Virus record (IMG/VR): IMGVR_UViG_3300048578_000354
Coordinates: 1 to 31,057 of that record
Source of the DNA: a virus
Taxonomy: Duplodnaviria; Caudoviricetes
Length of the DNA stretch: 31,057 nt
Strand: one strand, 5' to 3'
A program made the translations under genes and the position numbers. Positions 11,975 to 30,215 of this stretch are shown here, piece after piece; within the stretch, counting starts at the first letter, position 1, and the number at the start of each line of letters is the position of its first letter. The notes below the pieces were generated by a model. It was not told the DNA's origin, did no database searches, and was given only the letters and a program-made list of their open reading frames with translations.

Positions 11975-12002
11975 CACCACGGAAACCTCAAGTCCTTAGC
12001 GT
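11975..12002 (+). promoter_or_regulatory. Putative late-promoter motif, copy 1
   Basis: CACCACGGAAAC-N10-TAGCGT, ending 56 bp before the ATG at 12059. Confidence 0.7.
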
Positions 12003-12058
12003 CGCACCGACAGCGTCGGGCTGAATGGCCGCCGGCGCGCAAGCGACATGAGGACAAG

Positions 12059-14122
12059 ATGCCCGTTGTGCCGACCTATGAAGACCGGGGCATCCGCCTC
12101 GACCCCGGCCTCAATTTCCGCGACAACACCCACGCCACGCCGGAGATGTTCGGCTCCGGCATCGGCACCGCGCTCGGCACGGTTGGCAAGGGGCTGATGG
12201 ACCTGGGCGGCGCCGTGGCCGAGGTCGCTGATCTCGACGCGACCAACGCGGCCAAGGACAACAACAACGGCTTCATGGGTGGTGTGCGCGAGCTCAGCTA
12301 CGGCGAGAACGGCTATATGAACACCACCGGCCGGGTGGCGGTGGAAGGGCTGGATGCCTACCGCAAGGGCCTGTTGCAACTGGCGCAGGATGGAGCGAAG
12401 GGCCTGTCGCCCCTGGCGGCCCGAAAGTATTGGGATGCCACCAATGTGACACTCAACAGCCTGTCGGACGAAGCCGCCAAGCATGCCATGCAGCAGCGCA
12501 AGGTCTGGACGGCGCAGACCAGCCGGGCGCGCGTCGATACCTTCCGCGAGAGTGCCGCAGCGAGTTGGGGGCAGCCCAATGCCGAGAAGCTGGACGTGAT
12601 TGCCGCATTCACCGAGTACCAGCAACTTGGAAACCTGTTGGGTTGGAAAGCGGACGAGTTGGCTGGGCAGTCGGCCGGATTGATCTCGGACGTGCATGAG
12701 GACGGCATCCTGCGGAAGGCCGAGGGCGACCCTAGGGGGGCTGCTGCCGACATCGAGACGTACAAGGGCTTTCTGCTACCCGAGGCTCAGGAACGACTGA
12801 AGGCTACCGTCGGCAAGGCCGCGCTCGACGAGGAGACGCGGCTGGGGGCGCTGGAGTTCGCGGGCGGAACGCGAAAGCCGGGCGAGGCTTCGCGATCGTA
12901 TCTCGCGGAAGCGGCCGAGGCCGGCGCCGCGCCGAAGGTCGGGCCGACGCTGGAGCGGGCGCTGCTGCTGGGGCACGTGACGGGCGATGACGCCGACAAG
13001 GTGATCCGTCTCGATCCCAACTTCTCGACCAATCTTGCCGCTCTCCTCGAGGACGTACCGTCCCAGTACCGCGACGACATCAACATCCGCATTCCCGAGG
13101 CCGACGGCAAGGGGCGAACGGTCGATCTCACCTACAGGGGCAAGAGCCTTTCTGTCGCTCCGTCGCAACTGCTGGACTGGGCGAGGCGTTCTGTCGGGCG
13201 CTATGGCATGCTCATGCCGATCGGCGGGACGGGCGGCGCGGTGACGGCCGCCACCGACGGCATTGCCGTGCGGGCGCAGCGGCCCTCGGCCGACGCCATC
13301 GACAAGCACCTCGCCGGCATCGATGATCCGCGCCGGCGGGAGATTGCCAAGCAGGCCATCGCCACCTCGCTGGATCTCGAAAGCCAGCAGGAGCGAGAGC
13401 GGCAGCGGCAGGCCAAGGCCACGCTGTGGCAGCAGGTGGAGGCCGGCACGCCGCCCGATGCGCTGCCCTATACCCTCCGTCAGGCGGCCGGCGACCAGGC
13501 CATGACGGTGGCGCGCAACTACATCGGCAAGAAGCTGGCCGGGCCGATCGTCAGCGACGACATGCTGCTGGCCGACATGCGCCTGTTCTCGGCCGAGCGG
13601 CCGGAGGACTTCGCGCTGGTCGACCTCAACGACTATCGCGACCGTCTGGAGGACTCCGACCTCAAGGCGCTTGCCGAGACGCAGGCGGCGATCGGCCGCG
13701 ACGGCCGCAAGGCACGCGACCAGGGCGCCGAGCTGAAGGACGCCTTCGACATGGCGAAGGCGCGCCTGGAGGACGCCGGCGCGATCCTGCCGGGCGAGGA
13801 GAACAGCGGCCAGCGGCGCCAACTGCTGGCCGAAGTGCAGAACGCCGTCTACACCGGCCTTGCCGACTTCCGGGCGAAGAACCCCGGCATCAAGCCGGCG
13901 CCGGCCGACGTCCGCCGGATGATCGACAAGTTCCTCCTGCCCTACTACGTGCCGCTGCCGGACCCGAGGCGCGAGAGGCCCACGGCCGTCAAACTCTCCG
14001 ACATCTCGCCCGACCTGCGCAGGAGCATCACCCGCCAGCTCGCCACCGAGTATGGCCGCAAGCCGACGGACGGCGAGGTGGCGCGCGAGTATCAGGCTTT
14101 CATGCAGGCGCAGGGGGCGTGA
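12059..14122 (+). CDS. Medium internal virion / ejection protein (T7 gp15, P22 gp20 position)
   Basis: ATG at 12059 with GAGGA RBS (MPVVPTYE start is typical). The track start at 11894 lies inside the REP-like element. Ala-rich helical protein. Confidence 0.72.
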   Translation: MPVVPTYEDRGIRLDPGLNFRDNTHATPEMFGSGIGTALGTVGKGLMDLGGAVAEVADLDATNAAKDNNNGFMGGVRELSYGENGYMNTTGRVAVEGLDAYRKGLLQLAQDGAKGLSPLAARKYWDATNVTLNSLSDEAAKHAMQQRKVWTAQTSRARVDTFRESAAASWGQPNAEKLDVIAAFTEYQQLGNLLGWKADELAGQSAGLISDVHEDGILRKAEGDPRGAAADIETYKGFLLPEAQERLKATVGKAALDEETRLGALEFAGGTRKPGEASRSYLAEAAEAGAAPKVGPTLERALLLGHVTGDDADKVIRLDPNFSTNLAALLEDVPSQYRDDINIRIPEADGKGRTVDLTYRGKSLSVAPSQLLDWARRSVGRYGMLMPIGGTGGAVTAATDGIAVRAQRPSADAIDKHLAGIDDPRRREIAKQAIATSLDLESQQERERQRQAKATLWQQVEAGTPPDALPYTLRQAAGDQAMTVARNYIGKKLAGPIVSDDMLLADMRLFSAERPEDFALVDLNDYRDRLEDSDLKALAETQAAIGRDGRKARDQGAELKDAFDMAKARLEDAGAILPGEENSGQRRQLLAEVQNAVYTGLADFRAKNPGIKPAPADVRRMIDKFLLPYYVPLPDPRRERPTAVKLSDISPDLRRSITRQLATEYGRKPTDGEVAREYQAFMQAQGA

Positions 14123-14151
14123 GGGGGGGGCGGCCCCTTACGCATTCAGTT

Positions 14152-14544
14152 TCAGCGCTGGGTTATCCCTGCGTCTTGGACCGGAGCCGCGCCAAACTCT
14201 ACCTCCAGATCCTTCAGTGAAGAATAGGTCATGCTGATGGATAGAAAAAGCAAGATGGCGACGCCGGTACCGAGGCCCCTCGTCGGGACGGAAGCATTCC
14301 GGGCGAGACGGATGATGGCAAAAAAGAGGGCCGGTATGATGAACAAGCCTATGAAGTGGCCGACAACGGTCCCGATATACCGCGCGGATCCGAAATCCTG
14401 ATTGGGTACCTTGACGCCGAGAAGAACTGTGATGACGATCGTGGCGGCCAGGGCAAGCAGGCACAGCTTTCTCAAGCAGCTGTCGCGATGATATCTGTCG
14501 AGCGCTACGGCTTTCTTGATCTCTTCTGAGACGTCGTCTTGCAT
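14152..14544 (-). CDS. Small 3-TM membrane protein, paralogue A
   Basis: 130 aa, three hydrophobic segments, GAGG RBS. Aligns with 15698..16042. Confidence 0.75.
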   Translation of the reverse strand: MQDDVSEEIKKAVALDRYHRDSCLRKLCLLALAATIVITVLLGVKVPNQDFGSARYIGTVVGHFIGLFIIPALFFAIIRLARNASVPTRGLGTGVAILLFLSISMTYSSLKDLEVEFGAAPVQDAGITQR

Positions 14545-14702
14545 GTTTTTGCCTCGTGCCCCGTCCGACGGCGCAGGCGCGGACGGGCTGTCGCTCGCAA
14601 GGAGGGCCGATCCCTCGGTTGGTCCGACTGTGTCCGGAAACGGCGCGAGTCGACAATGGAGTACAACCCCTTATTGAAGCGCGGGCGCGGCAAGGCGCCG
14701 AT

Positions 14703-14730
14703 CACCACGGAAACCGTCAGCAGTTAGGGC
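14703..14730 (+). promoter_or_regulatory. Putative late-promoter motif, copy 2 (degenerate)
   Basis: CACCACGGAAAC-N10-TAGGGC. The final T of the -10-like hexamer is lost and no virion gene follows. Confidence 0.6.
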
Positions 14731-14962
14731 GCTGTTCGATCTGACTGAATCAGATCGGCGCCCGAAGTCTGTGTTTGCCAGGTATCATCTTGTCGATCCT
14801 CGTTTCACCCCGGTCGGATGATGCTCTTGCCTCTGGCCCGTCTGACGACAAAGGCCGAGCCAGGGCGCATGGGCGATAGTGCGGACTCGGAGATATACCG
14901 TTGTGGATCGGGGTGTGGCTGCCGTAAAGGTTGTGCGTTGCGCTTATCGGTAGAGGTGCCGG

Positions 14963-15535
14963 ATGTATTCGCTTTCGGATATTGTTGTTCCCCTTGTTAA
15001 TATAATTGCTAGCAGGGCGCTCCATTTTCTCGACTACAGCATTATTACTCTCTTGGGGGTGCCCCTGATTTCCGCGCTGGGGGCTCTGCATTTTGCGAAG
15101 CCCGCGTTCAAACTCGGACGGGCTGGCTACTTTTGTGCGACCGGCTTGTTCATTTTGCTTTTGGCGGTTGGTAAGAGTCTGATTTTTCTGACCTACTGGG
15201 CTCTTTTGGACAGTACTTTCTCTTGGGAGAGCGGGCTTTACCTGTTGGCGGTGCTGGGCATCTATGCCTGGTTTGTGGGGATGGGCGTTTTCATGGGGTT
15301 CGCGTCTTCCGCCCGGGCCATGGATGGGTATGGCCATCGCACCTACTGGTTTCTGGGCTTCATCCCGCTCGCCGACCTCGTGTTGCTGCTCAAGAGTCCG
15401 CGCGAGCGAAAAGCACTGACCTTGAAGCGGCTGGCCGGAAACACGCTGCTGATCGCCATCGGCGCGCTGCTGATCTGGATGGTCAGAGTGCAGGTCCATA
15501 TCTTTTCTACGATAATCGATGCGCTGGGACAGTAA
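14963..15535 (+). CDS. Multi-TM membrane protein, DUF805-like
   Basis: 190 aa, about 5 hydrophobic segments, motifs GRAGYF and ARAMDGYG...WFLGFIP. AGAGG RBS. Lower GC. Confidence 0.7.
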   Translation: MYSLSDIVVPLVNIIASRALHFLDYSIITLLGVPLISALGALHFAKPAFKLGRAGYFCATGLFILLLAVGKSLIFLTYWALLDSTFSWESGLYLLAVLGIYAWFVGMGVFMGFASSARAMDGYGHRTYWFLGFIPLADLVLLLKSPRERKALTLKRLAGNTLLIAIGALLIWMVRVQVHIFSTIIDALGQ

Positions 15536-15603
15536 GCCGCGAGCCGCCAAACCTGCCGTGGTCTTCAACGCCGCGCTGCCCTGACGCCTTCGATCGAAGG
15601 GGC

Positions 15604-15683
15604 AGCGGCACCCGCCTGCCTGCCATGGAGTATGCCGCAAGCCGACCGACGGCGAGGGGGCGCGGGAGTATCGGGCTTTCATG
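15604..15683 (+). pseudogene. Decayed copy of the 3' end of the 12059..14122 gene
   Basis: Aligns to 14024-14104 at 69/81 positions by manual count, including a 1-bp deletion. Confidence 0.85.
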
Positions 15684-15697
15684 TGAGCATAGTTGGG

Positions 15698-16042
15698 TCA
15701 GGAGGGGATGGCGCCCGACAGCTGCAAGCTGGCGTGGTAATAAAGCACGCCACACCAGATGAGGACTGCAATGAGGCCGGTTATCAGCCCGGCTCTGGGT
15801 ACGTCGGCCCAACGCATCAACCTGACCAGGACGAAAAACACCAACCCGAAAAGAAAAGCGGAGATGGCTATGCCTAAAGTCTCTCCAATCCAACGTCCTG
15901 TCGCACCACGCAGGTAGGGGTCAACAGGCTGAGCGGGTCTGTGAAGCTGGACTATCAGGCTACAGGCCAGAGCAACAAGAAACATGATGCCAAGGCTTAT
16001 CTTGAGGCCGCGCTTCTTCTCCGCAGGGCTGTAGTCTTTCAC
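15698..16042 (-). CDS. Small 3-TM membrane protein, paralogue B
   Basis: 114 aa, GTG start, AAAGGA RBS. Shares R[YW]IG and FFxxxRLxRxAxVPxxGLxTG with paralogue A. Confidence 0.75.
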   Translation of the reverse strand: MKDYSPAEKKRGLKISLGIMFLVALACSLIVQLHRPAQPVDPYLRGATGRWIGETLGIAISAFLFGLVFFVLVRLMRWADVPRAGLITGLIAVLIWCGVLYYHASLQLSGAIPS

Positions 16043-16050
16043 TTCGGATT

Positions 16051-16065
16051 GTTCCTTTGTTGTTC
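16051..16065. promoter_or_regulatory. Alphaproteobacterial LexA-type box, proximal
   Basis: GTTC-CTTTGTT-GTTC, overlapping the RBS of 15698..16042. Confidence 0.55.
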
Positions 16066-16193
16066 GATGCTTTTCGGCTCAACGGCGTCGTGCTCCCGTC
16101 TCGCCGGTTTGCCTGATACCGCGCGAGTTCTCCGCAGCGCTCTTGGTCCTTGAATGCCTAGCCTCGCTCAGCCTTGCGCGTGGCCGGTAGCCT

Positions 16194-16350: not shown

Positions 16351-16378
16351 CACCACGGAAACCCGCAGGACTTAGCGT
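16351..16378 (+). promoter_or_regulatory. Putative late-promoter motif, copy 3
   Basis: CACCACGGAAAC-N10-TAGCGT, 30 bp before the TTG at 16409. Confidence 0.7.
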
Positions 16379-16408
16379 CAGGCCTGATCCTTTTCGGGAG
16401 ATAGGTCT

Positions 16409-19400
16409 TTGCGCACCCCAGACAGCCCTGAAAACTACAACGCCTTCAAGGATAACCAGCAGCGGCAAAACGAAAAGCGCCAGCAGTTCCGGGTCGTGAC
16501 GCGGCTGGCAGGCGACGACAGCTCGCCCGTCAGTGACGAGCAGCTTGCCAACGACGTGGCCAAACAAACCGGGAGCGCTCCGGCGCCGGAGGACATCGTC
16601 AGGGCCAATCGCGAACTGTTCCGCGAGGCGAGCGACAGGGCATGGGCGGAGAAGATCGGGAAAGAAGCGCCGATTACGTTGGCGTCGATGGGCGATCCCA
16701 GAGTTGGGCTCACATCGCGCAGTGACGCCGAGGCGTTTGCCGGCATCGAGAAGAATCTGAGCAAGATCGTAAATGCTCCAAACCCGGATGGAGCTGGGGC
16801 GCCAGTGCGGGGCCTTCAGTTGGCTTCCGCGCCGATTTCTGTGCTTGGCCCGAACGGGCGTATGCCTTTGCCCCCCATTCCCGTGCCTGATCCGAGGCGC
16901 GTGGTTCCGACTCCGCGCTCGGACCCACGGGATACTCTCCCTCTCCCCGACCCGAGAAAAAGCCCGGCGCTACCGACGCAGCCTGAGGGGCAAGAAAATG
17001 CGACGGCAGCGGTTATAGACGCGCCGGCAGACGTCCCTAGGCATGGAGGGGCATCTCTGACTGAAGGGGCGGGGCAGGTGCCAGCTACAGAAGGGGCCGG
17101 GGCGGAAGCGTCGAAGGGGGCGTCCTCTGATGGTAAGGTGGCTCCTATGCGATCTGACTCCGCAGCGTCTGCGTTCGGTGAGGCGGAGGGAAAGGACGGC
17201 ACTTCCACTACCCCCACCGTAGAGGACAAACCGAGTGGCAACATAGGGGGACCGGAAACGACCTCTGGCCAGACTGCACCCGCTATGGAGGGGGGCGGTG
17301 ATCGGAATGTGGGTGGCAAAGCTCCCGGGGAAGCAGAGGGGCAGGACGCTGATGCTGGGTCTGCTGGTGGCGGCGCGGTTGGTCCCGGCAAGGCGCCGCA
17401 AGCCTCTTCATTGGGTGGCGGTACGGAGAAGGAAGCTTCCCCTTCTTTGAACGCAACGCAGGCCCCCACAAGTGCAAATGAGCACATGGCTGGTCAGCCC
17501 GAAGTGGCTGCATCTGCGGGGCGAGTTGGTGAAGAGGTAGGATCGTTTGGCTTTTCTGTGGAGTCGCGCCCCGACACGACTCTTCTCGTTGATATTGCGT
17601 TCGCCAAAGAAAAGAGCCCAGAAGAGCAGGCGGAAATCCGCACTAGGATCTACAAGTCTAACCCTTCTCATATCCCCCACCTCGTGGATATGTACGAAGG
17701 CGCGCTGCATGGCGTAAGCCCACTTAAGCTGATTGGAGATATGTCTCCAGAACTTAGTGGTATTTCGTCAATTCTTCAGACTGTTAGCGGTCAGTATCCG
17801 GATAAATCTAAGCTTTTTTATTTTCTTAATGCGTTAGATCGAGGTTTTTCTGGCCTTTCGCTGAATGAGCTGTACGAAAATGGGGAAAAATTCGCTCAAA
17901 TTGGTCTAGATCAAGACCGCTCAATTGTGGAGATATACAAAGATGAGTGGTCTATGTACAGTTTTGACGCTGCTGTCCCTATGCAAAGTGGGTCGTATTC
18001 ATCTCCGACTTACGCCGGGAATAGTTATGCGGGACTTTCTCTTTTAAGTGCGTTTGGCGCCATAAAGCGTTGGGGACTATCCCGCTTGGAGTCTAAGGAT
18101 GCGCTGCCGCTGGCCAAACAATATTTCGAGGATGCAGCCAAAGTTCAGGCTCACATTGAAGCCTTGCCTCTGTCACCAGAAGCTACCCGTTTTATGACCG
18201 CGATGGACAAGTTGAATGATGAGCCGTCGGTCTCGGTCCAGACGTCGAAGCTAACGTCTCTCGTGAAAGAGGATCCCTGGGGCGCCCTAGCCCTTGTCGC
18301 TGAAAAGGGAGTGGAAGGAGTCCCTGTTCTCTTGATGCAATCCATAGCTGTTGCCTTGACGAAGAAACCCATGGTGGGCGTAGGGTTGAACATCTTGGCC
18401 GCTGAACAACAAGCGCATGCGACTACAGCACTAAAGTTCATCGAGGATAAGGGCTTCAACATACAGAAGCATGGTGAAATCGGTCGCCTCCTAAAAGCGC
18501 CGGATGTGTTGAGAGAGGCGGAACGGCTTGGTGATAGAAGGGCACTCTTGGCTGTTCTGGTAGCGGCTGCCTCCGGTCGCCTCGGATCGGAAAACCTACT
18601 GGCCGACATAACCCTCAAGCAAGTTGCTTCTCCTCTATTGGCCATGGGTGGCGAGGCACTAGGAGAGATCTATTCAGGCGAGCAGTTGAAGGTCGCCGAT
18701 ATCGCTATGGCCGGCGCTTTGGATTTCGTCAACAGCTCAGTATCGCGGGGGGTCGATGTTGTAACTGGCAAAGCCTTAGCTAATGTGAAGATAGGTTGGC
18801 ACGACTACATCTCTTTGCAAAGAATTATAAAGGATGGCGAGGGATCGAATCTTCGGATAAAAAATCCTGATGCATATGAGATGGCTATTGCGGAGATTGT
18901 TCGTGGTCATCCAAATGAGAAAATATTCTTAGGAATTAGAGAACTAGATTTTGCGCTCAAGCGATTGAACCTCAATGAGGATGTCTTTTTGGCGGGACTT
19001 AAGGGAGTCACCAAAGCAGATCTTGAGGCGGCACGCCAAGTTGGCGGCGATATCCAAATTCCGACAGAAGTTTATCTGACACGCATCGCTTATGAGCCGA
19101 TCGGTGTGCAGACAATACCGTTTGCGCGTTTTGGTCTGAACGGGGTGTCTGGCGTTGAGGCGCGGGCACTCGCAAACTGGCTAAAGGAGTCCCAGAGATC
19201 TCTCGACGAAAGTCTGAACGGCGTAGAGACAGGAACTCCTGCTTCTGTAATGGCGCCGTCTTCAGAGGGAGGTAAAGGAACGCAACCAAGTGAGGGCGCC
19301 GGTCAGGCTACCGCGACGCCTGATCCGTCTGGCACTACCTCGCAAGGTTCGAGCTCGCTGGCCGCTGGTGCGACGTCGTCGGATAACTCAAAGGCCACAG

Positions 19401-19759
19401 TGGTTCCACAGCAGACCCAAACGCTTCCCATCGGTGGCAGAGAGTTCATGGATTCCACGTCGCCGGAAGCGCTCGTTACTCCTGAGGGAACGTTGGGTCC
19501 CAGGCAGTTTGTCCCTAAAGCGGGAAAGCTGCCCCCGGAAACGCTGGTTCCGCAGCGCCCAGCCCAAGGTAACTCACGCGGACACGGCAAAATTGTGCCA
19601 GGCGTTGATCCCTATCCTGAGGGTCTTCCCAATAAGGTACCAAAGCAGAAGGATAAGCTGGGTACCTATGATCAAGCAGCCCGAGACAATCCAGTCCAGG
19701 AACTGCTTTTCCCACCAGCACTAAATCAGTCCCCTGAACTATTCTTGTATGGACGCTGA
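16409..19759 (+). CDS. Large internal virion / ejection protein, N-terminal part, with low-complexity inserts
   Basis: 1116 aa, TTG start with GGAG. Segments SNLRIKNP...EKIFL and GGDIQIPTEVYLTRIA resemble giant podovirus internal proteins. Visibly lower GC than its neighbours. Confidence 0.62.
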   Translation: MRTPDSPENYNAFKDNQQRQNEKRQQFRVVTRLAGDDSSPVSDEQLANDVAKQTGSAPAPEDIVRANRELFREASDRAWAEKIGKEAPITLASMGDPRVGLTSRSDAEAFAGIEKNLSKIVNAPNPDGAGAPVRGLQLASAPISVLGPNGRMPLPPIPVPDPRRVVPTPRSDPRDTLPLPDPRKSPALPTQPEGQENATAAVIDAPADVPRHGGASLTEGAGQVPATEGAGAEASKGASSDGKVAPMRSDSAASAFGEAEGKDGTSTTPTVEDKPSGNIGGPETTSGQTAPAMEGGGDRNVGGKAPGEAEGQDADAGSAGGGAVGPGKAPQASSLGGGTEKEASPSLNATQAPTSANEHMAGQPEVAASAGRVGEEVGSFGFSVESRPDTTLLVDIAFAKEKSPEEQAEIRTRIYKSNPSHIPHLVDMYEGALHGVSPLKLIGDMSPELSGISSILQTVSGQYPDKSKLFYFLNALDRGFSGLSLNELYENGEKFAQIGLDQDRSIVEIYKDEWSMYSFDAAVPMQSGSYSSPTYAGNSYAGLSLLSAFGAIKRWGLSRLESKDALPLAKQYFEDAAKVQAHIEALPLSPEATRFMTAMDKLNDEPSVSVQTSKLTSLVKEDPWGALALVAEKGVEGVPVLLMQSIAVALTKKPMVGVGLNILAAEQQAHATTALKFIEDKGFNIQKHGEIGRLLKAPDVLREAERLGDRRALLAVLVAAASGRLGSENLLADITLKQVASPLLAMGGEALGEIYSGEQLKVADIAMAGALDFVNSSVSRGVDVVTGKALANVKIGWHDYISLQRIIKDGEGSNLRIKNPDAYEMAIAEIVRGHPNEKIFLGIRELDFALKRLNLNEDVFLAGLKGVTKADLEAARQVGGDIQIPTEVYLTRIAYEPIGVQTIPFARFGLNGVSGVEARALANWLKESQRSLDESLNGVETGTPASVMAPSSEGGKGTQPSEGAGQATATPDPSGTTSQGSSSLAAGATSSDNSKATVVPQQTQTLPIGGREFMDSTSPEALVTPEGTLGPRQFVPKAGKLPPETLVPQRPAQGNSRGHGKIVPGVDPYPEGLPNKVPKQKDKLGTYDQAARDNPVQELLFPPALNQSPELFLYGR

Positions 19760-19823
19760 CGCTTGCTCCCCAATGGAAGGCTGAAACTGTTGTCCCTAAT
19801 GGTGACGGCATTGCTGGTCATGG

Positions 19824-19847
19824 CGGAAACCCGGCTTCTCCTAGCAT
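19824..19847 (+). promoter_or_regulatory. Putative late-promoter motif, copy 4 (11-bp spacer)
   Basis: CGGAAAC-N11-TAGCAT in the gap before the next large gene. Confidence 0.5.
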
Positions 19848-20034: not shown

Positions 20035-23000
20035 ATGACCATCATGTCCCCTCAGACGGCAGACGGGGATATCCACCGTCTTCGTGTCGGCTCAAAAGAT
20101 GACAGAGCGCTCCCAACGACGGAGACGAGCCCGAGTGGCTCTATGCACCCACCTGCCAATGACGGGGAGACGTTGAAGCGGGTGTTCGCGGATGCCGGCT
20201 TGTCGGCCGTGGTGAACGAAGCCGCCCGCGCGTTCCTGACGCTGCTGTCCGGCATGGAGCGGCGCGGCGATACCGCGGCGGTGGCCGACCACGCGACGCT
20301 TCGCCGATGGTGGGGCGATGGCAGCGACGGCGAAGCGCGGCTTGCCCGTGCCTTCGTGGCGTATCTTCTGGACGGCACCGCACTGCCGGCCGGGCCGCGC
20401 GAGGCGTTTCGGCATTTTCGGGCTTGGCTGATCGGGCTTTATGTCGTTGAGCGCCGGCAGGGCGTGGCTGTCAGGGCCGAGGTGGCCGAGGTGTTCGACC
20501 GGCTGCTGGCCGTAGAGCTGGCGCTGGCCGAGGCGCGGCGGACGGCGGGGGATGTTGGGCCCGTGTCGCCGGACCTTCAGGAGAAGCGCACGGCGGCGGA
20601 CGCCGAGGCCGAGGATCGGCTGACGGGGGAGATCTTGCGGCCGGTGCGGGCAGCGCGGGAGAAAGGCTATCGCCAGGAACTGGCGGCGGCGACGGCCGAG
20701 GCGGAAGAGCGGATCAATGCGCTGCCGGTTTATCGGGCCACCGAGTGGCTGACCAGCCGGCGTTGGTTGGGTGAAGAGATGCCGGCGCTGCCGACGATCC
20801 GGCTGTCGCGGCCCATCCTCGTCGAACGCTACGGCGAGGCGGTGCTGGCGGCGCTGCCGCGCGGGCGGTTCACCGCTCATGCGGCGACGGGTGGCGTCGA
20901 CCCCGACGAGGCGGCCGGGCTGTTCGGCTTTTCGAGCGGCGACGAGATGATCCAGGCGATGGCGCTGGTGCCGAAGCGCGAGGCGACCATTGCGCTCGAG
21001 GCCAAGCGGTTGATGGTGGAGCGGCGGGGCGATCCGCTGGTTGACGGCACGTTGCCGGAGATGGCGCTGGCCGCCATTCACGGCCCTCGCATGGCCGAAT
21101 GGCTGGCCGCGGAGCTCAAGGCGTTGGCCGGCCCTGCCGGCGAGGCGCAGCCCGTCAGCGCCGAGGGCGCGGCGGCATTCGCCCGCGACGCGCTGGTGGA
21201 CACGCCGGTGCGCGACGCCATCGACGCCCGTCGCCATCTGGTCGCCGAGCGGCGGGCCGGCGAGGAGGTGGCGAAGCTTGCCGCGTCCAGCGAGGGCGTG
21301 CGGGCGGAAGACCTTTATGACGCACGGCGACGGCAGTTGCTCAACCTGGCGCTCTATGCCGAGGCGCTGGGGATTGCCGACGATCTCGAGGCGGCGGAGG
21401 AGATGGTGCGCCGGCTCGACCGGCCCGAGCGGCCGGAGGTGACGATCGGCGTTGACGGCTGGCCGGCCATCGATGCCATTCTCGATCGTTTCGAGTTCCG
21501 CAAGACCGATGAGCCGGCGCCGCGCAACGCGGTGGCGACCTTCGTGAAGGCGATGACGGCGGCCGGCCGCGACAACGAGCTGGCGATCGCCGATCTGGTG
21601 CTGCAGGGCGGCGAGGGAAAGCCCTATGGCGAGCTGCCGATCGGCGTGCTGAAGGCGGTGGTGGCCAGCCTCGACAACATCGAACACGCCATGGGCCGCA
21701 ACGATGCGCTGGTGGACGAGCGCGGGCGGCAGCGCCTCAGCGAGGCAGCCAAGGGCATCGCCACCGCGCTGGAGCGGACGAAAGGCGGAGCCGGGAAGCG
21801 CCCGGTCGATCTCGGCCGGGCCGCCGAAGAGGTGTTGCGCGAGATCGACGGCCGCGCCAAAGGGCCGGCTTTCGCCGCGCTGAAGGCGCCCGTCGATGCC
21901 GCCGTCGCGGCGCTGAAGGCGCGCCGGCAGCGGGCGGCCGAGGAAGTCGCGGCGCTCTATGCGCCCTATGACGCGGGCGAGCGGCGGGCGATGGCGGTGC
22001 GCCGCTTCCTGCCGGCGCTGGGGCGGTCGCTGTCGCGCTGGGAGATGATCGCCGTTGCGCTCAACGCCGGCACCGAGGCCGGCCACGCGGCGCTGACCGG
22101 TCCGGCGGGCTTTCCGCCGGAGATGGTGTCGGCGATCCTCGCGGCGCTCGATACGCGGGATGCGCGCTTCATCCAGTCCGTCTGGGACTATCTCGAGAGC
22201 TTCCGGGACGAGATCGCCGCGCGCGAGCGGCGGGCGACCGGCGCGGCGCCCAGATGGAGCGAGGCGCGGCCGGTGAGTGTCGGCGGCGTGGCGCTGACGG
22301 GCGGCTTCTATCCGCTTGATATGAAAGGAGACCTGGCCGTCGATGTGCGGGTCGGCCGCTTCGCCAAGGCGATGGTGGAGGGTGGAGGAGGGGATGGAGC
22401 CGCCGTGGGGCTCGATCTCGCGCTGGTCCATGCCTTCGTCGACCGGTTGTTGCACGATCTCGAACTGTCGGAGGCGGTGACCAACGCGCGCCGGCTGCTC
22501 GCGCAGCCGGAGCTGCGCGACGCCTTCACAGCCAAGGGCCGCACCGACGATCTCGAAACGCTGGCGGCCTGGCTCGACGCCGTCGCGGCGGGCGATCTCA
22601 GGCCGGCGGATTTCCATCTGCGCATGGCCTCGGCCGAGGGCGGCGACGCCGTGGCCCGGCAGCTGGCGCGGGACCTCGCGGCGGCGTTGACCGATGCGGC
22701 AGGCTTGCCCGAAGCGATCGAGGCGGTGGGCGCGGCGTTCGCGGAGGGCGCCGGCGGGACGTTCGTTGACGGCATCGCCGACCGGATCGCCGAGCGGTCG
22801 CCCCTGATGGCCGGGCGGCGGCTGGCGGCGGCGAAGCGGGGCGAGGCGGGGCCGGACGATCTCGCGGCCTGGCTGATCCGGCGCGTCCGCTGGCACTTCG
22901 TCGAGGTCCCGGCGTGGCTTGCCGGCTACGGCCACGGACTTGCGCGCTCCGGCGGTGATGCCAGGGCGGTGGCCGAGGGCGACCGCTGGGTGAGGAGGAT

Positions 23001-23376
23001 CGGGCTTCCGGATGGCCAGGCGGGGGCGGCGGTGAAGGTGATGGTTGCCGCCCTGATGGCATCCTCCGCCGCATCGGACGCGGCGGGCTTGGCGCGCACC
23101 CTCGGTGCAACCCTGCTGTTCGCCCGCGAGAGGTTGGTGCTGGCGGCGGCGCGAAGCGGCGAGGGCGCCTTGGGCCTGCTCGGCGCGGCGCCGGGCATCG
23201 GCGCTGCGACGTCGATGGACGGGGAGGGTGCGACCCGGGCGGCCCTGTGGGCGAAGAGTGGCGGCCGCGACGGGGCGGGCGCCGCCGCCGTGCGGTCGGC
23301 CATGATGGCGGCGGCGCTCATGATCGACGCGCCGGCGGAGGTGGCGATCGACCACGCGTTCGGCGCGATGACGTAG
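20035..23376 (+). CDS. Large internal virion / ejection protein, C-terminal part
   Basis: ATG at 20035 with GGAG (track start 19924). Motifs ARAFVAYL, FRAWL, EVFDRLLA, FGFSSGDEM, VALNAG, FIQSVWD, LTGGFYPL. Very high GC, Ala-rich. Confidence 0.7.
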   Translation: MTIMSPQTADGDIHRLRVGSKDDRALPTTETSPSGSMHPPANDGETLKRVFADAGLSAVVNEAARAFLTLLSGMERRGDTAAVADHATLRRWWGDGSDGEARLARAFVAYLLDGTALPAGPREAFRHFRAWLIGLYVVERRQGVAVRAEVAEVFDRLLAVELALAEARRTAGDVGPVSPDLQEKRTAADAEAEDRLTGEILRPVRAAREKGYRQELAAATAEAEERINALPVYRATEWLTSRRWLGEEMPALPTIRLSRPILVERYGEAVLAALPRGRFTAHAATGGVDPDEAAGLFGFSSGDEMIQAMALVPKREATIALEAKRLMVERRGDPLVDGTLPEMALAAIHGPRMAEWLAAELKALAGPAGEAQPVSAEGAAAFARDALVDTPVRDAIDARRHLVAERRAGEEVAKLAASSEGVRAEDLYDARRRQLLNLALYAEALGIADDLEAAEEMVRRLDRPERPEVTIGVDGWPAIDAILDRFEFRKTDEPAPRNAVATFVKAMTAAGRDNELAIADLVLQGGEGKPYGELPIGVLKAVVASLDNIEHAMGRNDALVDERGRQRLSEAAKGIATALERTKGGAGKRPVDLGRAAEEVLREIDGRAKGPAFAALKAPVDAAVAALKARRQRAAEEVAALYAPYDAGERRAMAVRRFLPALGRSLSRWEMIAVALNAGTEAGHAALTGPAGFPPEMVSAILAALDTRDARFIQSVWDYLESFRDEIAARERRATGAAPRWSEARPVSVGGVALTGGFYPLDMKGDLAVDVRVGRFAKAMVEGGGGDGAAVGLDLALVHAFVDRLLHDLELSEAVTNARRLLAQPELRDAFTAKGRTDDLETLAAWLDAVAAGDLRPADFHLRMASAEGGDAVARQLARDLAAALTDAAGLPEAIEAVGAAFAEGAGGTFVDGIADRIAERSPLMAGRRLAAAKRGEAGPDDLAAWLIRRVRWHFVEVPAWLAGYGHGLARSGGDARAVAEGDRWVRRIGLPDGQAGAAVKVMVAALMASSAASDAAGLARTLGATLLFARERLVLAAARSGEGALGLLGAAPGIGAATSMDGEGATRAALWAKSGGRDGAGAAAVRSAMMAAALMIDAPAEVAIDHAFGAMT

Positions 23377-23414: not shown

Positions 23415-23422
23415 TGCCGGCC

Positions 23423-23827: not shown

Positions 23828-23851
23828 AAACAAACCCGGCGGCTCTAGGGT
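23828..23851 (+). promoter_or_regulatory. Putative late-promoter motif, copy 5
   Basis: AAACAAAC-N10-TAGGGT upstream of tail fibre 1. Confidence 0.65.
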
Positions 23852-23935: not shown

Positions 23936-25441
23936 ATGACCATTGCGAGCGAAGCCAACCGCTCCGGCCCCTATGCCTGCAACGGCGCAACGACGCGCTT
24001 TCCCTACGCCTTCAAGATCTTCGACGAGGCGCATGTCCGCGTCATCCTGACCGACGCCGACGGCGCCGAGACCACGCTGGCGCTCGGGACGGACTATGTC
24101 GTGACCGGCGTCGGCACCGACGGCGGCGGCGCGGTGCAGACGGCCGTGGCCCATCCGACCGGCTGCCTGGTGACGCTGATCCTCAACGTGCCCTTCACGC
24201 AAGGGACGGACCTTGAAAACCAGGGCGCCTATTTCGCCGAGACCATCGAGCGGGCGCTGGACGAGGGCGTGCAGCGCGATCTGCAACTGGCCGAGGAGGT
24301 GGGGCGCGCCTTCAAGCTGCGTGCGTCCGCCGATCTGGTGGCGGCCGGGTCGGTGTTCGTTTCCGACGGTGTCGGCGGCGCCACCGGCGGGCCGTCGGCG
24401 GCCGATATCACGGCTGCCCGGGACATCGCGGTCGCCTCCGAGGGCGCCGCGATACTGGCCGCCGCGACGGCCGGCGAGAAGGCCGGAGCCGCGGTGGCGG
24501 CGGCCGACCGCGCGGAGACGGCGGCCGCCTCGGTGGAAGGCGTCGTCTCATACGCCGTCGCGCAGCAGCTGACCGCCGAGGAGAAGACGCGAGCGCTCGA
24601 GAACCTGGGGCTGGACAGGGCACTGACGCCCTTCGGCTTCACGGCGGCCGAGGGACAGAGCGCCTTCGCCCTCGGCATGTCGCCGGCGCCGAACGCCTGC
24701 ATCGTGTCGCAGAACGGCGCCTGGCTGACCGGCGGTGTCGACTATGCCATCGCCGGGTCGACGCTGACGCTGGCCACGGCGGCAGACGCGGGCGACCGCA
24801 TCTCCGGCGTGGCGATCTCATCGTTCGAAGTGGCGAACGCCATGCAGCCGGCCGCCAACCTGGCCGATCTTGGCGACAAGGCCGTGGCGCGAGCGAACCT
24901 GGGGTTGGGGTCGGCGGCGGTGCTGGGGGCGGGTACCGGGGCGGGAGAGGTGCTCAAGCTTGATTCCAACGCGCGGGCATCGGTCGCGGCGTTTCTTCCG
25001 GGGATGATCATCAACAGTGCGTATGCCGAAACTACCGTCGCCGCCGCGTTGACGGCGGTGTTGCCTATCGATGGAACTCTTCCGCTTGCAACTGAAGGAA
25101 CACAGGTGGTTGCCGTCACGATAACGCCGAGATTGTCTACGAGCCGCCTTCGGGTGATAGCGAAAGTCGTCGGACAGGTGAGCGGTGGTTCGTTCACAAC
25201 TCATGTCGGCTCAGCTCTCTTCGCAGGAACCACTCCCATTGACTTCACATCGACGCACTTAACGACGTCCGGTGCATTGTTCGCTCATGTGCTTTTGTCG
25301 GAGTTCTCTTCTAGCTCCACAGTACCAATCATGTTGTCCGTGCGATCCGGGCAAGCGGGTGGGGGGCAAACACTTAACATCAACACGCCCACAGCCAACG
25401 GATTTAAGTGCAGTATTTCTGTTGAGGAGATAGCCCCATGA
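23936..25441 (+). CDS. Tail fibre 1 (T7 gp17-like N-terminal anchor, variable tip)
   Basis: MTIASEANRSGPY...NGATTRFPYAFKI...DYVVTG anchor, ANLADL..ARANLGLG repeat, lower-GC C-terminus. Confidence 0.85.
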   Translation: MTIASEANRSGPYACNGATTRFPYAFKIFDEAHVRVILTDADGAETTLALGTDYVVTGVGTDGGGAVQTAVAHPTGCLVTLILNVPFTQGTDLENQGAYFAETIERALDEGVQRDLQLAEEVGRAFKLRASADLVAAGSVFVSDGVGGATGGPSAADITAARDIAVASEGAAILAAATAGEKAGAAVAAADRAETAAASVEGVVSYAVAQQLTAEEKTRALENLGLDRALTPFGFTAAEGQSAFALGMSPAPNACIVSQNGAWLTGGVDYAIAGSTLTLATAADAGDRISGVAISSFEVANAMQPAANLADLGDKAVARANLGLGSAAVLGAGTGAGEVLKLDSNARASVAAFLPGMIINSAYAETTVAAALTAVLPIDGTLPLATEGTQVVAVTITPRLSTSRLRVIAKVVGQVSGGSFTTHVGSALFAGTTPIDFTSTHLTTSGALFAHVLLSEFSSSSTVPIMLSVRSGQAGGGQTLNINTPTANGFKCSISVEEIAP

Positions 25442-26127
25442 CCCTCGCTGCAAATCTGGCGGCACTCGCCCGTCGTGTCGTTGGAATTTCCGCAAACAAT
25501 CTTGTCGCGCTCGACGGCTCGGCAAAGCTTCCCGCTGTTGATGGATCGCTGCTTACGGGCCTCGCGCTTGGCGGCATCAAGGGTGTCCGCCTGATCACGG
25601 CGTCTGGCAGCGTGACGCCGTCGGCGGGTGTGACCAAGTGGCTCTACTTCATCGTTGATGGTGGCTACAACGGGGGCGAGAGTGGGCAGGGCGCACAATA
25701 TAAGGCTGGCGGCGGTGGGTCGGGCGGCAAGGGTTCCATAGGGCTTGTCTCCGTAGATGCGGCTATTGCCTACAATGTGATCATCGGAGCCGGCAATGGC
25801 GGAGCAACCTCCGTTTTGGTCGGCGGCGTAACCAAGACGTCCACCAACGGGATCCTAAACGTTCCTGCTGCAAACCCGGACAGTCCGCCGATGGCCTTTA
25901 ATAGTTCGGCCGTCAGCTGGGCCATGTCGGGGTCTGGTGGGCCAGGACCATTCGGCTTTGGCAATGGTGGCTACGTGGCGGTTGCGGGTGGTGCCACCGG
26001 AGGTGCAAACGGCAATCCAGGTACGGGATATGGGGCCGGTGGTGGCGGAGGGGTGAGTGGTAGCCAGAATGGCAACTTAGCCGGAGGGGGCGGCTCGCCC
26101 GGCTGCCTCCTTATCTTGGAGTACTGA
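25438..26127 (+). CDS. Secondary fibre / receptor-binding protein 1, glycine-rich
   Basis: ATGA coupling. N-terminal LDGSAKLPAVDGS fibre motif followed by a Gly-rich domain. Confidence 0.7.
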   Translation: MTLAANLAALARRVVGISANNLVALDGSAKLPAVDGSLLTGLALGGIKGVRLITASGSVTPSAGVTKWLYFIVDGGYNGGESGQGAQYKAGGGGSGGKGSIGLVSVDAAIAYNVIIGAGNGGATSVLVGGVTKTSTNGILNVPAANPDSPPMAFNSSAVSWAMSGSGGPGPFGFGNGGYVAVAGGATGGANGNPGTGYGAGGGGGVSGSQNGNLAGGGGSPGCLLILEY

Positions 26128-26129
26128 CG

Positions 26130-26687
26130 ATGCGAACCGGATACATCATCGAAGCCGACGTTGTCGTCAACGCCATCATTCTGGCAAATGACGCTGACCC
26201 GGCTAACTTTGGGGCAGTTCTTGGCCTAGAAGGCGTTGGCATCGGCTGGGCGTTTGACGGCGAGACTTGGTCGCCGCCGGTCGGCCCTGCGCTCTCTCTC
26301 GCCGACCTCCGCGCCACCAAGCTCGCCGCCATCTCCGCCTCCGCCGACGCTCTCCTCGCCGCTGGTGCGCCCGTCTCAGGCGGCTTGCACATCGCCCTCG
26401 ACGATGGGAGCCGCGCCGACCTTACCGCAATGGCCTCGACAGCAACGGCCGCCTCCACCGGCGCCGTATCCTGGCCTGACACCTACTCGCGTGGCTGGAT
26501 CACTATCGAGAACGTGCGCATTCCGCTCTCAACGCCGGCCGATGGGCTGGCGCTGGCCGCCTCGGTGGGCGAGTGGTACGCGGCCGTGGTCCAGCATCGG
26601 CGCGATCTGAAGGACGCGGCGCTTTCGGCCGGGGATGCCGCCGCGCTCGACGCCATCGACATTGCCACCGGCTGGCCGGCGGCATAG
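26130..26687 (+). CDS. Tail-fibre assembly/chaperone-like protein 1 (DUF4376-like)
   Basis: LRATKLAAI...WITIENVRIPL...LKDAALSA..LDAIDIATGW. Position after the fibres. Confidence 0.7.
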   Translation: MRTGYIIEADVVVNAIILANDADPANFGAVLGLEGVGIGWAFDGETWSPPVGPALSLADLRATKLAAISASADALLAAGAPVSGGLHIALDDGSRADLTAMASTATAASTGAVSWPDTYSRGWITIENVRIPLSTPADGLALAASVGEWYAAVVQHRRDLKDAALSAGDAAALDAIDIATGWPAA

Positions 26688-26712
26688 GCGGGGCGTGGTG
26701 AAGCCGCTTTTT
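26307..26712 (+). repeat. Direct repeat of 29394-29799 (tail-unit duplication)
   Basis: Colinear at constant offset 3087, extending past the stop through GCGGGGCGTGGTGAAGCCGCTTTTT. Confidence 0.9.
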
Positions 26713-26770
26713 CCCGTGGCCGAACCTATCACGACGGCCGCGGCGCGATGAGACGCTTCGCTCCGCGACC

Positions 26771-26794
26771 AAACAAACGTCGCCAGGTTAGCGT
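26771..26794 (+). promoter_or_regulatory. Putative late-promoter motif, copy 6
   Basis: AAACAAAC-N10-TAGCGT upstream of tail fibre 2. Confidence 0.68.
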
Positions 26795-26875
26795 TCGTAC
26801 CAGCTCAGTTCTCCCTGCCGTCGCGTCGTTCGTGGACCACCAGCTTTCCGCGCGATGCCTTTTGCGAGGCCCTCC

Positions 26876-28708: not shown

Positions 28709-29292
28709 CCCTTGCCGCTAATCTTGCCACGCTCGCGCGTCGTCTCGTAGGCACCGCCGCAAACAATTTGCTCTCACTTGACGGTGCAGCTAAGTTGCCG
28801 GCTGTTGATGGGTCGCAGCTCGTCGGTGTCGGCAGAAAGCTTATCTCTACGACAAGCATAAGCTCAGCGGCGTCTGCCGACATTACGTTGCCATCTGGGT
28901 ATTCCAAATTCGAAGTCGAGTTGCTGGGACATACAGGCAACAACTACCTGATGGTGCAGGTACGAGTGGCAGGCGCCGGAGCCGTTCTTTCAGGAGCGAC
29001 CGACTATAAACAGATAGCGCAGCTCCGCGCTACGGGCGTTGTTAGCTACGACGGTAGCGCAGGCGTAAGCTCGTACCGCATCATCCACGTAGCGATCTCT
29101 TGGTTCGACGTGTTGATCGACATCGATAACGTATCCGGCGCGATCAAGTCGCAAGGTTGGGCTGCTGGTAACGAGCTCTCAGCAATGGGCCGCGTCCAAA
29201 CCGCCGGTCCTTACAATCTTCTTCGACTGACGCCCAGTACGGGTACCCTCACCTGCACGTGCAAGCTCTTTGGCATCAAGGATGCGTCATGA
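28705..29292 (+). CDS. Secondary fibre / receptor-binding protein 2
   Basis: First ~41 aa paralogous to 25438..26127, remainder unrelated and beta-rich. ATGA coupling at both ends. Confidence 0.7.
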   Translation: MTLAANLATLARRLVGTAANNLLSLDGAAKLPAVDGSQLVGVGRKLISTTSISSAASADITLPSGYSKFEVELLGHTGNNYLMVQVRVAGAGAVLSGATDYKQIAQLRATGVVSYDGSAGVSSYRIIHVAISWFDVLIDIDNVSGAIKSQGWAAGNELSAMGRVQTAGPYNLLRLTPSTGTLTCTCKLFGIKDAS

Positions 29293-29774
29293 GAAAGATC
29301 GTCATCGAAGCCGACGGATCATTTGTTGAGCGTGAAATGACGCCGGATGAGGTGTCAGGGCTCGATGCATTGAGAGGCGATGAGCTTCGACAACTCCGCG
29401 CCGCCAAGCTCGCCGCGATCTCGGCGACTGCCGACGCTCTGCTCGCCACCGGCGCTCCGGTTGCCGGCGGCTTGCACGTCGTCCTCGATGACAGGAGCAG
29501 CGCCGATCTGATGGTCATGGCCTCGACCGCAACGGCCGCCTCCACCGGCGCCGTGACGTGGCCGGAGAGTTATTCGCGTGGCTGGATCGCGATCGAGAAC
29601 ATGCGCATCCCGCTTGCCGCGCCGGCCGACGGGCTGGCGCTGGCGGCATCGGTGGGCGAGTGGTACGCGGCCGTGGTCCAGCATCGGCGCGATCTGAAGG
29701 ATGCGGCGCTGGCGGCTGGGGATTCCGCCGCGCTCGACGCCATCGACATCGCCGCCGGCTGGCCGGCGGCATAG
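29289..29774 (+). CDS. Tail-fibre assembly/chaperone-like protein 2 (DUF4376-like)
   Basis: ATG at 29289 overlaps the upstream stop. C-terminal ~125 aa nearly identical to 26130..26687. Confidence 0.72.
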   Translation: MRKIVIEADGSFVEREMTPDEVSGLDALRGDELRQLRAAKLAAISATADALLATGAPVAGGLHVVLDDRSSADLMVMASTATAASTGAVTWPESYSRGWIAIENMRIPLAAPADGLALAASVGEWYAAVVQHRRDLKDAALAAGDSAALDAIDIAAGWPAA

Positions 29775-29784
29775 GCGGGGCGTG

Positions 29785-30183
29785 GTGAAGCCGCTTTTTT
29801 CCGACGCCGATCCCGCCAACGAGGTGCTGGTGCGGCTTGGCGAGGTCAGCGCCAGTGTCCAGCACCTGTTGCGCGACTTCGGCGACGAGAAGATCGCCGC
29901 CCGCGACAATCGCGCCGCCATGCATCGCCGCCTCGACGAGCAGGCGCGCGAGCTGTCGGCGCTGAAGGCCGAGCTGACGCTCAGCCGGCGGGCGGTCGAG
30001 GACATGGCGCGGACGCAGAGCGAAACCGTGCTGCCGGCCGTCGGCGAGTGGCGCGACATGAAGACCACCGGGCTGCGCATCGTCGGCGTGCTGGCCATCG
30101 GCGGCGTCAGTATCGGCGCCACGCTGGCCTGGTTCTCCGATCAGGCGGTGTCGCTCTTGCGCCACTGGCTCCGGATCGGCTGA
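29785..30183 (+). CDS. Coiled-coil protein with a C-terminal TM segment (DUF1515-like, lysis-region gene)
   Basis: GTG at 29785 (or 29782). RAAMHRRLDE motif and C-terminal hydrophobic helix. Confidence 0.6.
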   Translation: MKPLFSDADPANEVLVRLGEVSASVQHLLRDFGDEKIAARDNRAAMHRRLDEQARELSALKAELTLSRRAVEDMARTQSETVLPAVGEWRDMKTTGLRIVGVLAIGGVSIGATLAWFSDQAVSLLRHWLRIG

Positions 30184-30187
30184 GCGC

Positions 30188-30215
30188 CACCCCGCAAACC
30201 CTTGCCGCCTAGTCT
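30188..30215 (+). promoter_or_regulatory. Putative late-promoter motif, copy 7
   Basis: CACCCCGCAAAC-N10-TAGTCT (10/12 match to CACCACGGAAAC), 31 bp before the holin ATG. Confidence 0.68.

Follow-up and report, generated by a model that had tools for sequence, protein, structure and literature searches.

Why should one short DNA motif recur in front of virion genes that have been pushed apart by unrelated cargo genes? The question arose from a stretch of 31,057 nucleotides of a Caudoviricetes virus (IMG/VR record IMGVR_UViG_3300048578_000354, positions 1 to 31,057), which in its whole length is called the window here. According to Pfam and PHROGs matches, the window holds the tail and lysis half of an epsilon15-like podophage gene set, broken up by cargo. 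An initial annotation had described the motif AAAC-N10-TAGnnT before every restarted virion segment and had read it as a -10 element with a close upstream box, recognised by a dedicated activator or an alternative sigma factor and letting a broken-up late operon fire as one regulon. On the directly observed positions and conservation of the motif, the gene content and the truncation of the small terminase (TerS), we conclude that the motif is probably the inherited late promoter of the epsilon15-like podophage family, standing before the scattered genes of a domesticated element in Pleomorphomonas that is itself probably similar to a gene transfer agent (GTA). Among the gene names used below, gp13 to gp16, adaptor and holin are given by analogy; from Pfam come only T7_gp14 and nozzle.

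Seven copies of the motif in the window

All seven strings described in the initial annotation were found in place on the + strand, with AAAC at 11983, 14711, 16359, 19827, 23832, 26775 and 30196. The spacers are of 10 bp with a single one of 11 bp, again as described.

11975..12002, + strand: precedes the gp15-like gene; box ending at 11987 and hexamer TAGCGT at 11997-12002; a copy gained where cargo split gp14 from gp15
14703..14730, + strand: orphan copy, gp16N-type motif with hexamer TAGGGC, 87% identical over 30 bp to the copy at 16351
16351..16378, + strand: motif before the N-terminal half of the large internal virion protein, present in 5 relatives
19820..19847, + strand: motif with the 11-bp spacer (AAAC at 19827), before the C-terminal half of the large internal virion protein; among relatives in G002 only
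23828..23851, + strand: motif before tail-fibre module 1; an intact prophage has the same position
26771..26794, + strand: motif before the duplicated tail-fibre module 2
30188..30215, + strand: motif before the holin-like gene and endolysin; the intact prophage has the same position

Six copies sit 50-208 nt 5' of the start codon of a virion or lysis gene, which bears out what had been said of them. The statement that all copies lie outside coding sequences needed a qualification, since the longest open frame (11894-14122) takes in the copy at 11975, although by homology that gene starts at the ATG at 12059. The pattern AAACN{10,11}TAG matched seven times in the window, always on the + strand, compared with 1.29 +/- 1.12 matches in 100 dinucleotide shuffles, none of which reached seven; this pattern was derived from the same seven sites, and the held-out sites in relatives described below are the stronger test. 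No sigma-70 -35 consensus was found at the motif sites, scans of the window for the sigma-70 consensus and for terminators were not above shuffles (3 vs 3.0 and 16 vs 14.6), and Rfam gave no match in the window. A weaker match to the motif (15.7 bits) was also seen at 18366, within the gp16N gene.

The copy at 14703 alone among the seven lacks the last T of the hexamer, as had been noticed. The initial annotation connected this loss with the absence of a virion gene behind the copy, an explanation that did not hold. The copy is a duplicate of the 16351-type motif, and its T is missing because a repeat of about 100 bp begins at its TAG, which is thus the edge of an insertion.

14725..14830, no strand assigned: dispersed palindromic repeat, starting exactly at the TAG of the orphan copy

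This repeat has six matches at 85-90% identity in the regions of genomes G026 and G001, and weaker or shorter ones in G019, G024, G004 and G022. Loss of the last T of the -10 element does not necessarily silence an alphaproteobacterial promoter (PMC8407463). A membrane-type cargo gene (window 14963-15535, + strand) lies 230 nt 3' of the orphan motif; a 56% homologue follows gp15 in G002 and has no motif.

Conservation of the motif in relatives

Relatives of the window nozzle with 81-96% identity came from Pleomorphomonas or from unclassified Proteobacteria records. Among 27 genomes of the family, 10 carry a close nozzle copy (84-98%), and copies of the intact prophage type occur in G027 (81%) and as a second copy in G003 (73%). 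We gathered 56 motif sites by hand through AAAC-N10/11-TAG and position; the sites are akin to one another, so the independent unit is the gene class, of which there are 8. In relatives the motif stands before the small terminase, a gene for a protein of 269 amino acids (aa), the genes for adaptor and gp15, the two halves of gp16, every fibre module and the holin-like gene. The motif takes the form A-N4-G-N-AAACC-N9/10-TAGnnT. In columns outside the selection, weighted by class, A stands at -7 from AAAC in 92%, G at -2 in 89% and C after AAAC in 94%. Position 6 of the hexamer, which also lies outside the search pattern, is T in 55 of the 56 sites, which cover the 8 gene classes and the orphan.

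The position of the motif is specific. With leave-class-out matrices, 6 of the 7 sites of G024 were among the 7 best of 439,120 positions, with the TerS site in 29th place. The full matrix gave 7 matches of at least 13 bits in a 220-kb stretch of G024; every one of them lies on the late strand before a particle or lysis gene, the 269-aa gene being counted as such. A strict pattern matched 23 times in 5 genomes; 21 of these matches, and 5 of 5 in the single-contig G024, fall within the element, and the remaining two in unrelated regions. Held-out sites were found before the holin-like gene (TAATCT and similar), before the adaptor and capsid genes of the intact prophage, and before a small pre-portal gene in 8 of 10 search windows, two search windows being mis-placed. 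The expectation that matrix matches would appear before terminase and head genes at distant loci was borne out. The TerS site overlaps the last codons of an upstream regulator gene, and AAACC-N9-TAnnnT is kept there in 12 of 12 copies while the encoded residues vary. The gp15 motif is present in the window and 9 relatives.

Two observations concern individual motif-bearing genes. The 269-aa gene (L208:370-1176 in G024) belongs to no known family, has its own motif and lies between the head and tail modules in at least 6 genomes; it is a probable particle protein. At the adaptor site (L079-L086, about 9330-9420), the box pairs around CTAG with a downstream inverted copy that holds the ribosome-binding site, and folding models predict that a read-through RNA would hide this site while a promoter-started RNA would not. 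The shorter predicted transcript was more open at 8 of the 10 sites folded, which, with no null run and no clear covariation, serves as a lead only. Readings of the motif as an integron attC site, a repetitive extragenic palindromic (REP) element or an invertase site were rejected for the lack of a GTT core, the single orientation and the lack of a general dyad.

Origin of the motif in the phage family

G027:C34 is a contiguous prophage of about 48 kb with integrase, primase-helicase and recombination genes. It carries the motif before its TerS, capsid, adaptor, fibre and holin-like genes, and thus at internal positions (fibre, holin, adaptor) as well. In distant Rhizobiales phages (nozzle identity 55-75%), 16 of 19 distinct TerS starts have CAACC/AAACC-N9/10-TA within 110 nt; no such motif occurs there at spacings of 5-8 or 11-13, and the background is 1.5%. 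Over nine late genes, the cognate motif precedes 29 of 97 starts that are uncoupled from the upstream open reading frame (ORF), compared with 5 of 160 coupled starts, a division that is crude and made on mutually related phages. Columns outside the selection show CAACC followed by A (86%) and T (97%) in the phage sites, and the A at -7 recurs (64%). Of 36 phage sites overall, 16 have the final T of the hexamer; among TerS sites the figure is 3 of 17, leaving 14 of 17 without it.

These findings suggest that the motif is likely the inherited late signal of the phage family. The gp15 copy is of another kind. In the phages, none of 37 distinct regions upstream of gp15 holds the motif, and gp15 is coupled to gp14 in 34 of 37. 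The gp15 copy of the domesticated element was gained and kept where cargo splits gp14 from gp15, and it is here that the idea of the initial annotation stands up best.

A candidate activator

When 46 prophage ORFs, 23 of them early, were used as queries, a single non-structural close match was obtained in the fetched regions of the element, directly 5' of TerS; the winged-helix ORF was not among these queries and was linked to the match afterwards. In the element, the regulator is a fusion of an HNH-like domain with a CPCC/winged-helix domain, found in 12 genomes, and the two are separate genes in the intact prophage. No other early gene was found to have been kept. The CPCC motif is invariant. 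The model of the winged-helix domain (mean predicted local distance difference test, pLDDT, 80.6) matched the DNA-binding domains of SaeR, VanR and PhoB in Foldseek with a probability of about 1 and E-values of 0.05-0.25, and its Atlas neighbours include Trans_reg_C (PF00486) clusters. The domain falls in no Pfam family (two fused proteins, E 0.05) and in no PHROG family, and it had no match among 50,697 deposited phages.

The gene tracks the motif. Its profile matched in 14 of the 15 related phage records and in all 16 genomes that carry such prophages, linkage to the same prophage being checked for part of them; a search of viral contigs by exact peptides gave none, though profile searches of the same records matched. 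G030 has neither the activator gene nor a TerS motif. Among five further genomes with a related TerS, the gene was found in G261 only and the motif in G261 only, and three more motif-less TerS loci fell outside the gene search. The predicted recognition helix reads KTQL in Pleomorphomonas, where the box is AAACC, and mostly KVAL in phages with a CAACC box. A coding site in the protease gene reads GGA-AAC in 13 of 13 Pleomorphomonas loci and in 4 of 35 others, and together with the change of helix and box it counts as one evolutionary event. Between the two kinds of factor first proposed, a dedicated activator is therefore favoured, because the winged-helix protein tracks the motif; no alternative sigma factor was recognised among the scanned early ORFs of the intact prophage. 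We consider it likely that the winged-helix protein reads the motif as its activator.

Two observations stand beside these. In G030, another small gene lies between the helicase and SSB genes (L283:11900-12500), and in P0009 the same fusion of HNH-like and winged-helix domains is found on a 49.8-kb contig of another organism.

The regulator may itself be under host control. CtrA binds TTAAC-N6-GTAAC 65-71 nt before gafA (PMC6363796). TTAAC lies about 71 nt before the regulator start in 9 of 9 loci, with another TTAA some 75 nt farther upstream in 8 of them (L225-L236; 70-150 nt upstream of the regulator). The count of TTAAC at one regulator locus was not above chance (5 vs 2.9), and the fixed position alone is notable. 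The sites are half-sites only, and control of the regulator by CtrA is possible.

A domesticated element in Pleomorphomonas

Capsid and portal homologues were found in 11 of 11 genomes searched. In the four genomes with both modules on one contig, the head genes lie 67-99 kb upstream of the tail genes on one strand. The gap holds host-like metabolic, transport and regulatory genes (30 ORFs scanned); of 86 gap ORFs of G024, 17 match in G001 and 21 in G004, largely colinear. From end to end, the gene set covers 145 kb in G024 and 102 kb in G001, compared with 45-48 kb in intact relatives, whose capsid protein is 93-95% identical. TerL is 53-54% identical to those of epsilon15 and phiV10. Phage primase-helicase, Cro-like and zinc-finger genes were not found in 5 of 5 genomes with single-protein queries, which divergent genes could escape, and integrase-like genes in five genomes are not linked to the element.

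The median ratio of nonsynonymous to synonymous substitution (dN/dS) was 0.08 for capsid, 0.14 for portal and 0.20 for nozzle (9, 10 and 9 copies) and 0.06 for gyrB, and there were no stops. Excluded from these ratios were the G019 capsid, which is frameshifted, the decayed copy of G027:C60 and the nozzle of G026. These values, together with the lack of stops in the compared copies, indicate purifying selection. In the nozzle tree, the domesticated copies form one clade with support of 0.90, next to two Pleomorphomonas prophages. G027 (C60 and C34) and G003 (C16/C19 and C23/C25/C27/C28) hold both the domesticated element and a related prophage, and the domesticated copy of G027 is decaying.

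In 12 of 12 copies, the small terminase starts near residue 60 of its phage counterpart. The missing residues, 1 to about 60, are the part that matches the N-terminal, DNA-binding SF6-type domain in 4zc3 and 2cmp. Lack of the same N-terminal part has been proposed as the reason for random packaging by RcGTA (PMC6854486).

A model for late expression

We propose that host sigma-70 polymerase would take TAGnnT as the -10 element, and that a CPCC-bearing winged-helix protein of the OmpR/PhoB/SARP type would bind A-N4-G-N-AAACC, at roughly -33 to -22, as a substitute for a -35 box and recruit the polymerase, with transcription starting about 7 nt past the hexamer. In the domesticated element, the activator would be the product of the fused gene directly 5' of the small terminase, outside the window. 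One diffusible activator reading many short promoters would allow the gene set to tolerate cargo and to spread over 102-145 kb, and a new copy of the motif arose where cargo severed gp15. A small terminase without its DNA-binding domain would let a particle package host DNA with little specificity. The sequences thus support the original idea of a -10 hexamer and close upstream box joining scattered late genes into one regulon. It is very likely that the motif acts as a promoter; that particles are produced and transfer genes has about an even chance. Tentatively, and with somewhat less than even confidence, we suggest that this is a new GTA in Pleomorphomonas: an independent and recent domestication of a podophage with convergent loss of the TerS N-terminus, a regulator under CtrA-type control, a SARP-like activator and a portable promoter of 27 bp that enabled dispersal over more than 100 kb.

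A number of observations weigh against this interpretation or against parts of the initial annotation. The motif does not mark every restart, contrary to the initial annotation, because TerL follows cargo that separates it from TerS and yet has the motif in 0 of 8 regions examined, and because the intact prophage already has internal copies. In the window, only the copies at 11975, 16351 and 23828 (3 of 7) come after cargo genes: that at 30188 lies 13 nt past the stop of the preceding gene of the particle cluster, that at 26771 heads the tandem copy of a fibre module, and that noted at 19824 stands between the halves of one split protein. The claim holds best for the gp15 copy, which does stand where cargo cut in. 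Four metatranscriptome contig sets covered the virion genes and the opposite-strand gap alike and are thus uninformative on expression or transcription starts; the small word shares in RNA runs are no evidence of habitat.

On the side of the activator, the fold match is weak by E-value (best 0.05) and the A2 profile matched no solved structure. The box shows no 11-bp direct repeat, and the class-weighted profile, followed to -30 from AAAC, holds no second box. The co-occurrence of gene and motif and the change from KTQL to KVAL lack phylogenetic independence, and in phages further conserved early genes are likewise found together with the motif. G032 has the gene and only a near-miss at TerS, in G036 the gene is divergent and the site is absent, and L087 has no site within 110 nt.

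On the side of the element, ejection genes of another type occur in 4 of 10 genomes, and in G001 and G021, where the ejection module is possibly incomplete, no large ejection protein was seen from gp15 to the fibre gene. G016, G017, G018 and G025, which are close in the gyrB tree, are without the regulator and without a close nozzle homologue, and the copies in G019 and G027:C60 have stops or frameshifts. Synonymous distances are 0.37-0.64 of those of gyrB and weakly correlated with them (Spearman 0.13-0.48), some groups matching gyrB, and they imply that the element recombined or spread sideways, leaving vertical descent supported in part.

Alternative explanations

The same promoter and activator might serve a particle that mainly delivers variable internal proteins or kills neighbours, gene transfer being incidental. 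The ejection proteins are indeed duplicated, split and swapped, with two module types, variable C-terminal parts and small signal-peptide or membrane genes behind them. The phage ejection protein of 2362 aa (LPD22 and MuF_C) is divided in the window into two halves (16409-19759 and 20035-23376), and the gp16N half has a fast-evolving low-GC middle. In the second type, the gp15 N-terminus is fused to a protein of 1000-1240 aa with a variable C-terminus (L172:1089-4613, L174:912-4025, L182:287-4006, L350:6337-9930), and a small signal-peptide gene follows in G001 and G021. Fibre modules number 1-3 copies, and the intact phage protein has a MuF_C domain; the MuF_C region, however, is gone from the split protein of the window, and no toxin domain was found in the variable ejection proteins scanned (11 with Pfam, 10 with PHROGs). 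Moreover, terminase, portal and capsid are kept, the latter two under purifying selection, and we regard this explanation as unlikely.

A defective prophage slowly decaying in an insertion hotspot would carry motifs that are leftover phage promoters, multiplied by local duplication and without host function. Such decay would fit the synonymous divergence, which is low when set beside that of gyrB, the patchy presence, the copies that are broken in 2 genomes and the relic motif copies in G002, G003 and the window. It would not account for dN/dS of 0.08-0.20, for a gp15 promoter that is absent in phages and kept in 9 relatives, for the same truncation of the small terminase in 12 of 12 copies, or for a long-lived, colinear, host-like region between head and tail. 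Decay without function is therefore quite improbable.

As to the factor that reads the motif, a host regulator, an alternative sigma factor, the HNH-like domain or a Q-like antiterminator might take the place of the winged-helix protein. The short spacing to the hexamer and the single-site box would suit another factor, the HNH-like domain is also retained in the fusion, and late control of GTAs by antitermination is known (10.1101/2024.11.20.624540, PMC11150451). The HNH-like gene, however, occurs in only 4 of 32 related records, in all four fused to the winged-helix domain as well; a processive antiterminator needs one promoter rather than eight, and the sites lack the -35 consensus of sigma-70. 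The near confinement of the motif to the element argues that it is not a host regulon, and we hold another factor to be very improbable.

A reading of the motif as a site of recombination or insertion, or as an RNA element, as the inverted repeat hiding the ribosome-binding site at the adaptor copy and the repeat inserted at one TAG might hint, is scarcely tenable in view of its single orientation, its fixed position before start codons, the TAnnnT hexamer, the lack of Rfam matches and the absence of the inverted repeat from the other classes in general.

Other features of the window

The genes of the window, preferred here as the tail and lysis part of the domesticated element, are the following.

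1..603, + strand: tail adaptor (tail tubular protein), phrog_394; in relatives the motif lies just beyond the window edge
600..2696, + strand: tail nozzle, PF25675 and phrog_376
2686-3324 (start uncertain) and 3317-3904, + strand: two small internal virion genes, phrog_308, and phrog_418 with PF24072 T7_gp14
3905..11893, both strands: cargo, with an HNH gene (+), a hipA/hipB-like pair (-), a TetR-like gene (-) and an MFS-acyltransferase-ligase fusion (+)
12059..14122, + strand: gp15-like internal virion protein, phrog_10475/1044, 35% identical to the intact prophage protein
16409..19759, + strand: N-terminal half of the large internal virion protein, phrog_9880, TTG start with GGAG upstream, variable low-GC middle
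20035..23376, + strand: C-terminal half of the large internal virion protein, phrog_9880, 41% identical to residues 1109-2250 of the intact protein
23936..26687, + strand: tail-fibre module 1, three genes, the last DUF4376; phrog_1640, phrog_1807, PF14301
26876..29774, + strand: tail-fibre module 2, a tandem copy, with an alternative in-frame ATG at 26855
29782..31057, + strand: DUF1515 gene (PF07439), holin-like ORF at 30247-30480 and endolysin at 30467-31057 (PF00959)

The holin-like label rests on position and hydrophobicity, the ORF at 30247-30480 having no family match. The TetR and MFS genes fill the same gap in 7 relatives. In addition to the repeat at the orphan copy, two in-frame copies of a 63-bp palindromic repeat stand at the start of the gp13-like ORF (window 2691-2816); similar sequence is abundant in metatranscriptome contigs and lies in frame in a host gene of L083. 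A further type of dispersed repeat (GAGGTCCTGCGCC...GGATGAC) flanks cargo genes at window 4480-4580, 7280-7400 and 11730-11920. It also occurs 5' of TerL in relatives, and insertions are clustered between particle genes.

Comparison with known systems

We found no literature account of the element, the motif or the activator in the sources covered, which did not extend to subscription papers and supplements. Two of the six criteria set out for GTAs (PMC9662315) describe what was seen here: particle proteins derived from Caudoviricetes, and genes that are endogenised, in separate loci and without their own replication. The term GTA-like fits the element, and we do not call it a GTA.

The promoter logic has a parallel in RcGTA and CcGTA (Rhodogtaviriformidae), in which dispersed genes are likewise served by one factor, GafA or GafY/GafZ, through many promoters with a degenerate -35 (PMC11150451). 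The RcGTA small terminase also lacks its N-terminal DNA-binding domain (PMC6854486), and the CtrA sites before gafA (PMC6363796) find a counterpart in the TTAAC half-sites before the activator gene. The present element differs in its podophage structural genes, in the fold of its activator and in having intact close phage relatives that are extant. The RcGTA marker TIGR02218 was found in 0 of 5 genomes, the positive control matching in Caulobacter. TIGR02243 (0 of 27) was discarded as a marker, since it had no match in Caulobacter either and the test was invalid.

BaGTA (Bartogtaviriformidae) likewise derives from a phage domesticated in Hyphomicrobiales, and its genes are scattered across 79 kb (PMC9662315). 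It uses one canonical sigma-70 promoter (TTGACA-N17) with a Q-like antiterminator (10.1101/2024.11.20.624540; PMC6899734), in contrast to the many short promoters found here. BaGTA also has run-off replication. In an indirect comparison by TerL, Sulfitobacter phages, named as the closest TerL relatives of BaGTA, were not among the best 30 of 273 TerL matches.

The temperate podophages of the epsilon15/phiV10/BPP-1/BcepC6B group share the order and families of head, tail, ejection and lysis genes. The Rhizobiales branch of this group was seen only as prophages and metagenomic contigs, and the element of the window has no linked integrase or replication genes. Since the known GTAs are ancient and distant from the phages that gave rise to them, the route from prophage to GTA is difficult to test. 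In the present case, domesticated copies occur alongside intact phages with 93-95% capsid identity, in culturable species and in two cases within a single genome, so that loss of replication, terminase truncation, regulator fusion, new promoters and host control can be compared step by step. A late promoter and its candidate activator can now be named for a whole family of uncultured Rhizobiales podophages, and so compact a pair is potentially useful in Alphaproteobacteria.

PhoB, with its own box spacing, is a class II activator, and the SARP and OmpR/PhoB activators of this class resemble the candidate in their winged-helix fold; AfsR was the top, but non-significant, sequence match (E 0.2). 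In SARP boxes, the 3' repeat lies 8 bp away from the -10 element, with the box covering -40 to -19, overlapping the -35 region, where SARP contacts region 4 of sigma (PMC10936776). If TAGnnT is placed at -12 to -7, the box described here would lie at about -33 to -22, within the zone bound by SARP (PMC10936776). The candidate differs in its single box without an 11-bp direct repeat, in having no receiver or BTA domain, in the invariant CPCC, in being phage-encoded and in belonging to no Pfam or PHROG family. Several late or middle promoters that combine a -10 hexamer with an activator box replacing the -35 element are also read by P1 Lpa, T4 MotA and Mu C, which use different box sequences and belong to different protein families. 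Even if the particles transfer no DNA, the promoter and activator described here would remain a new example of this familiar form of phage late control.

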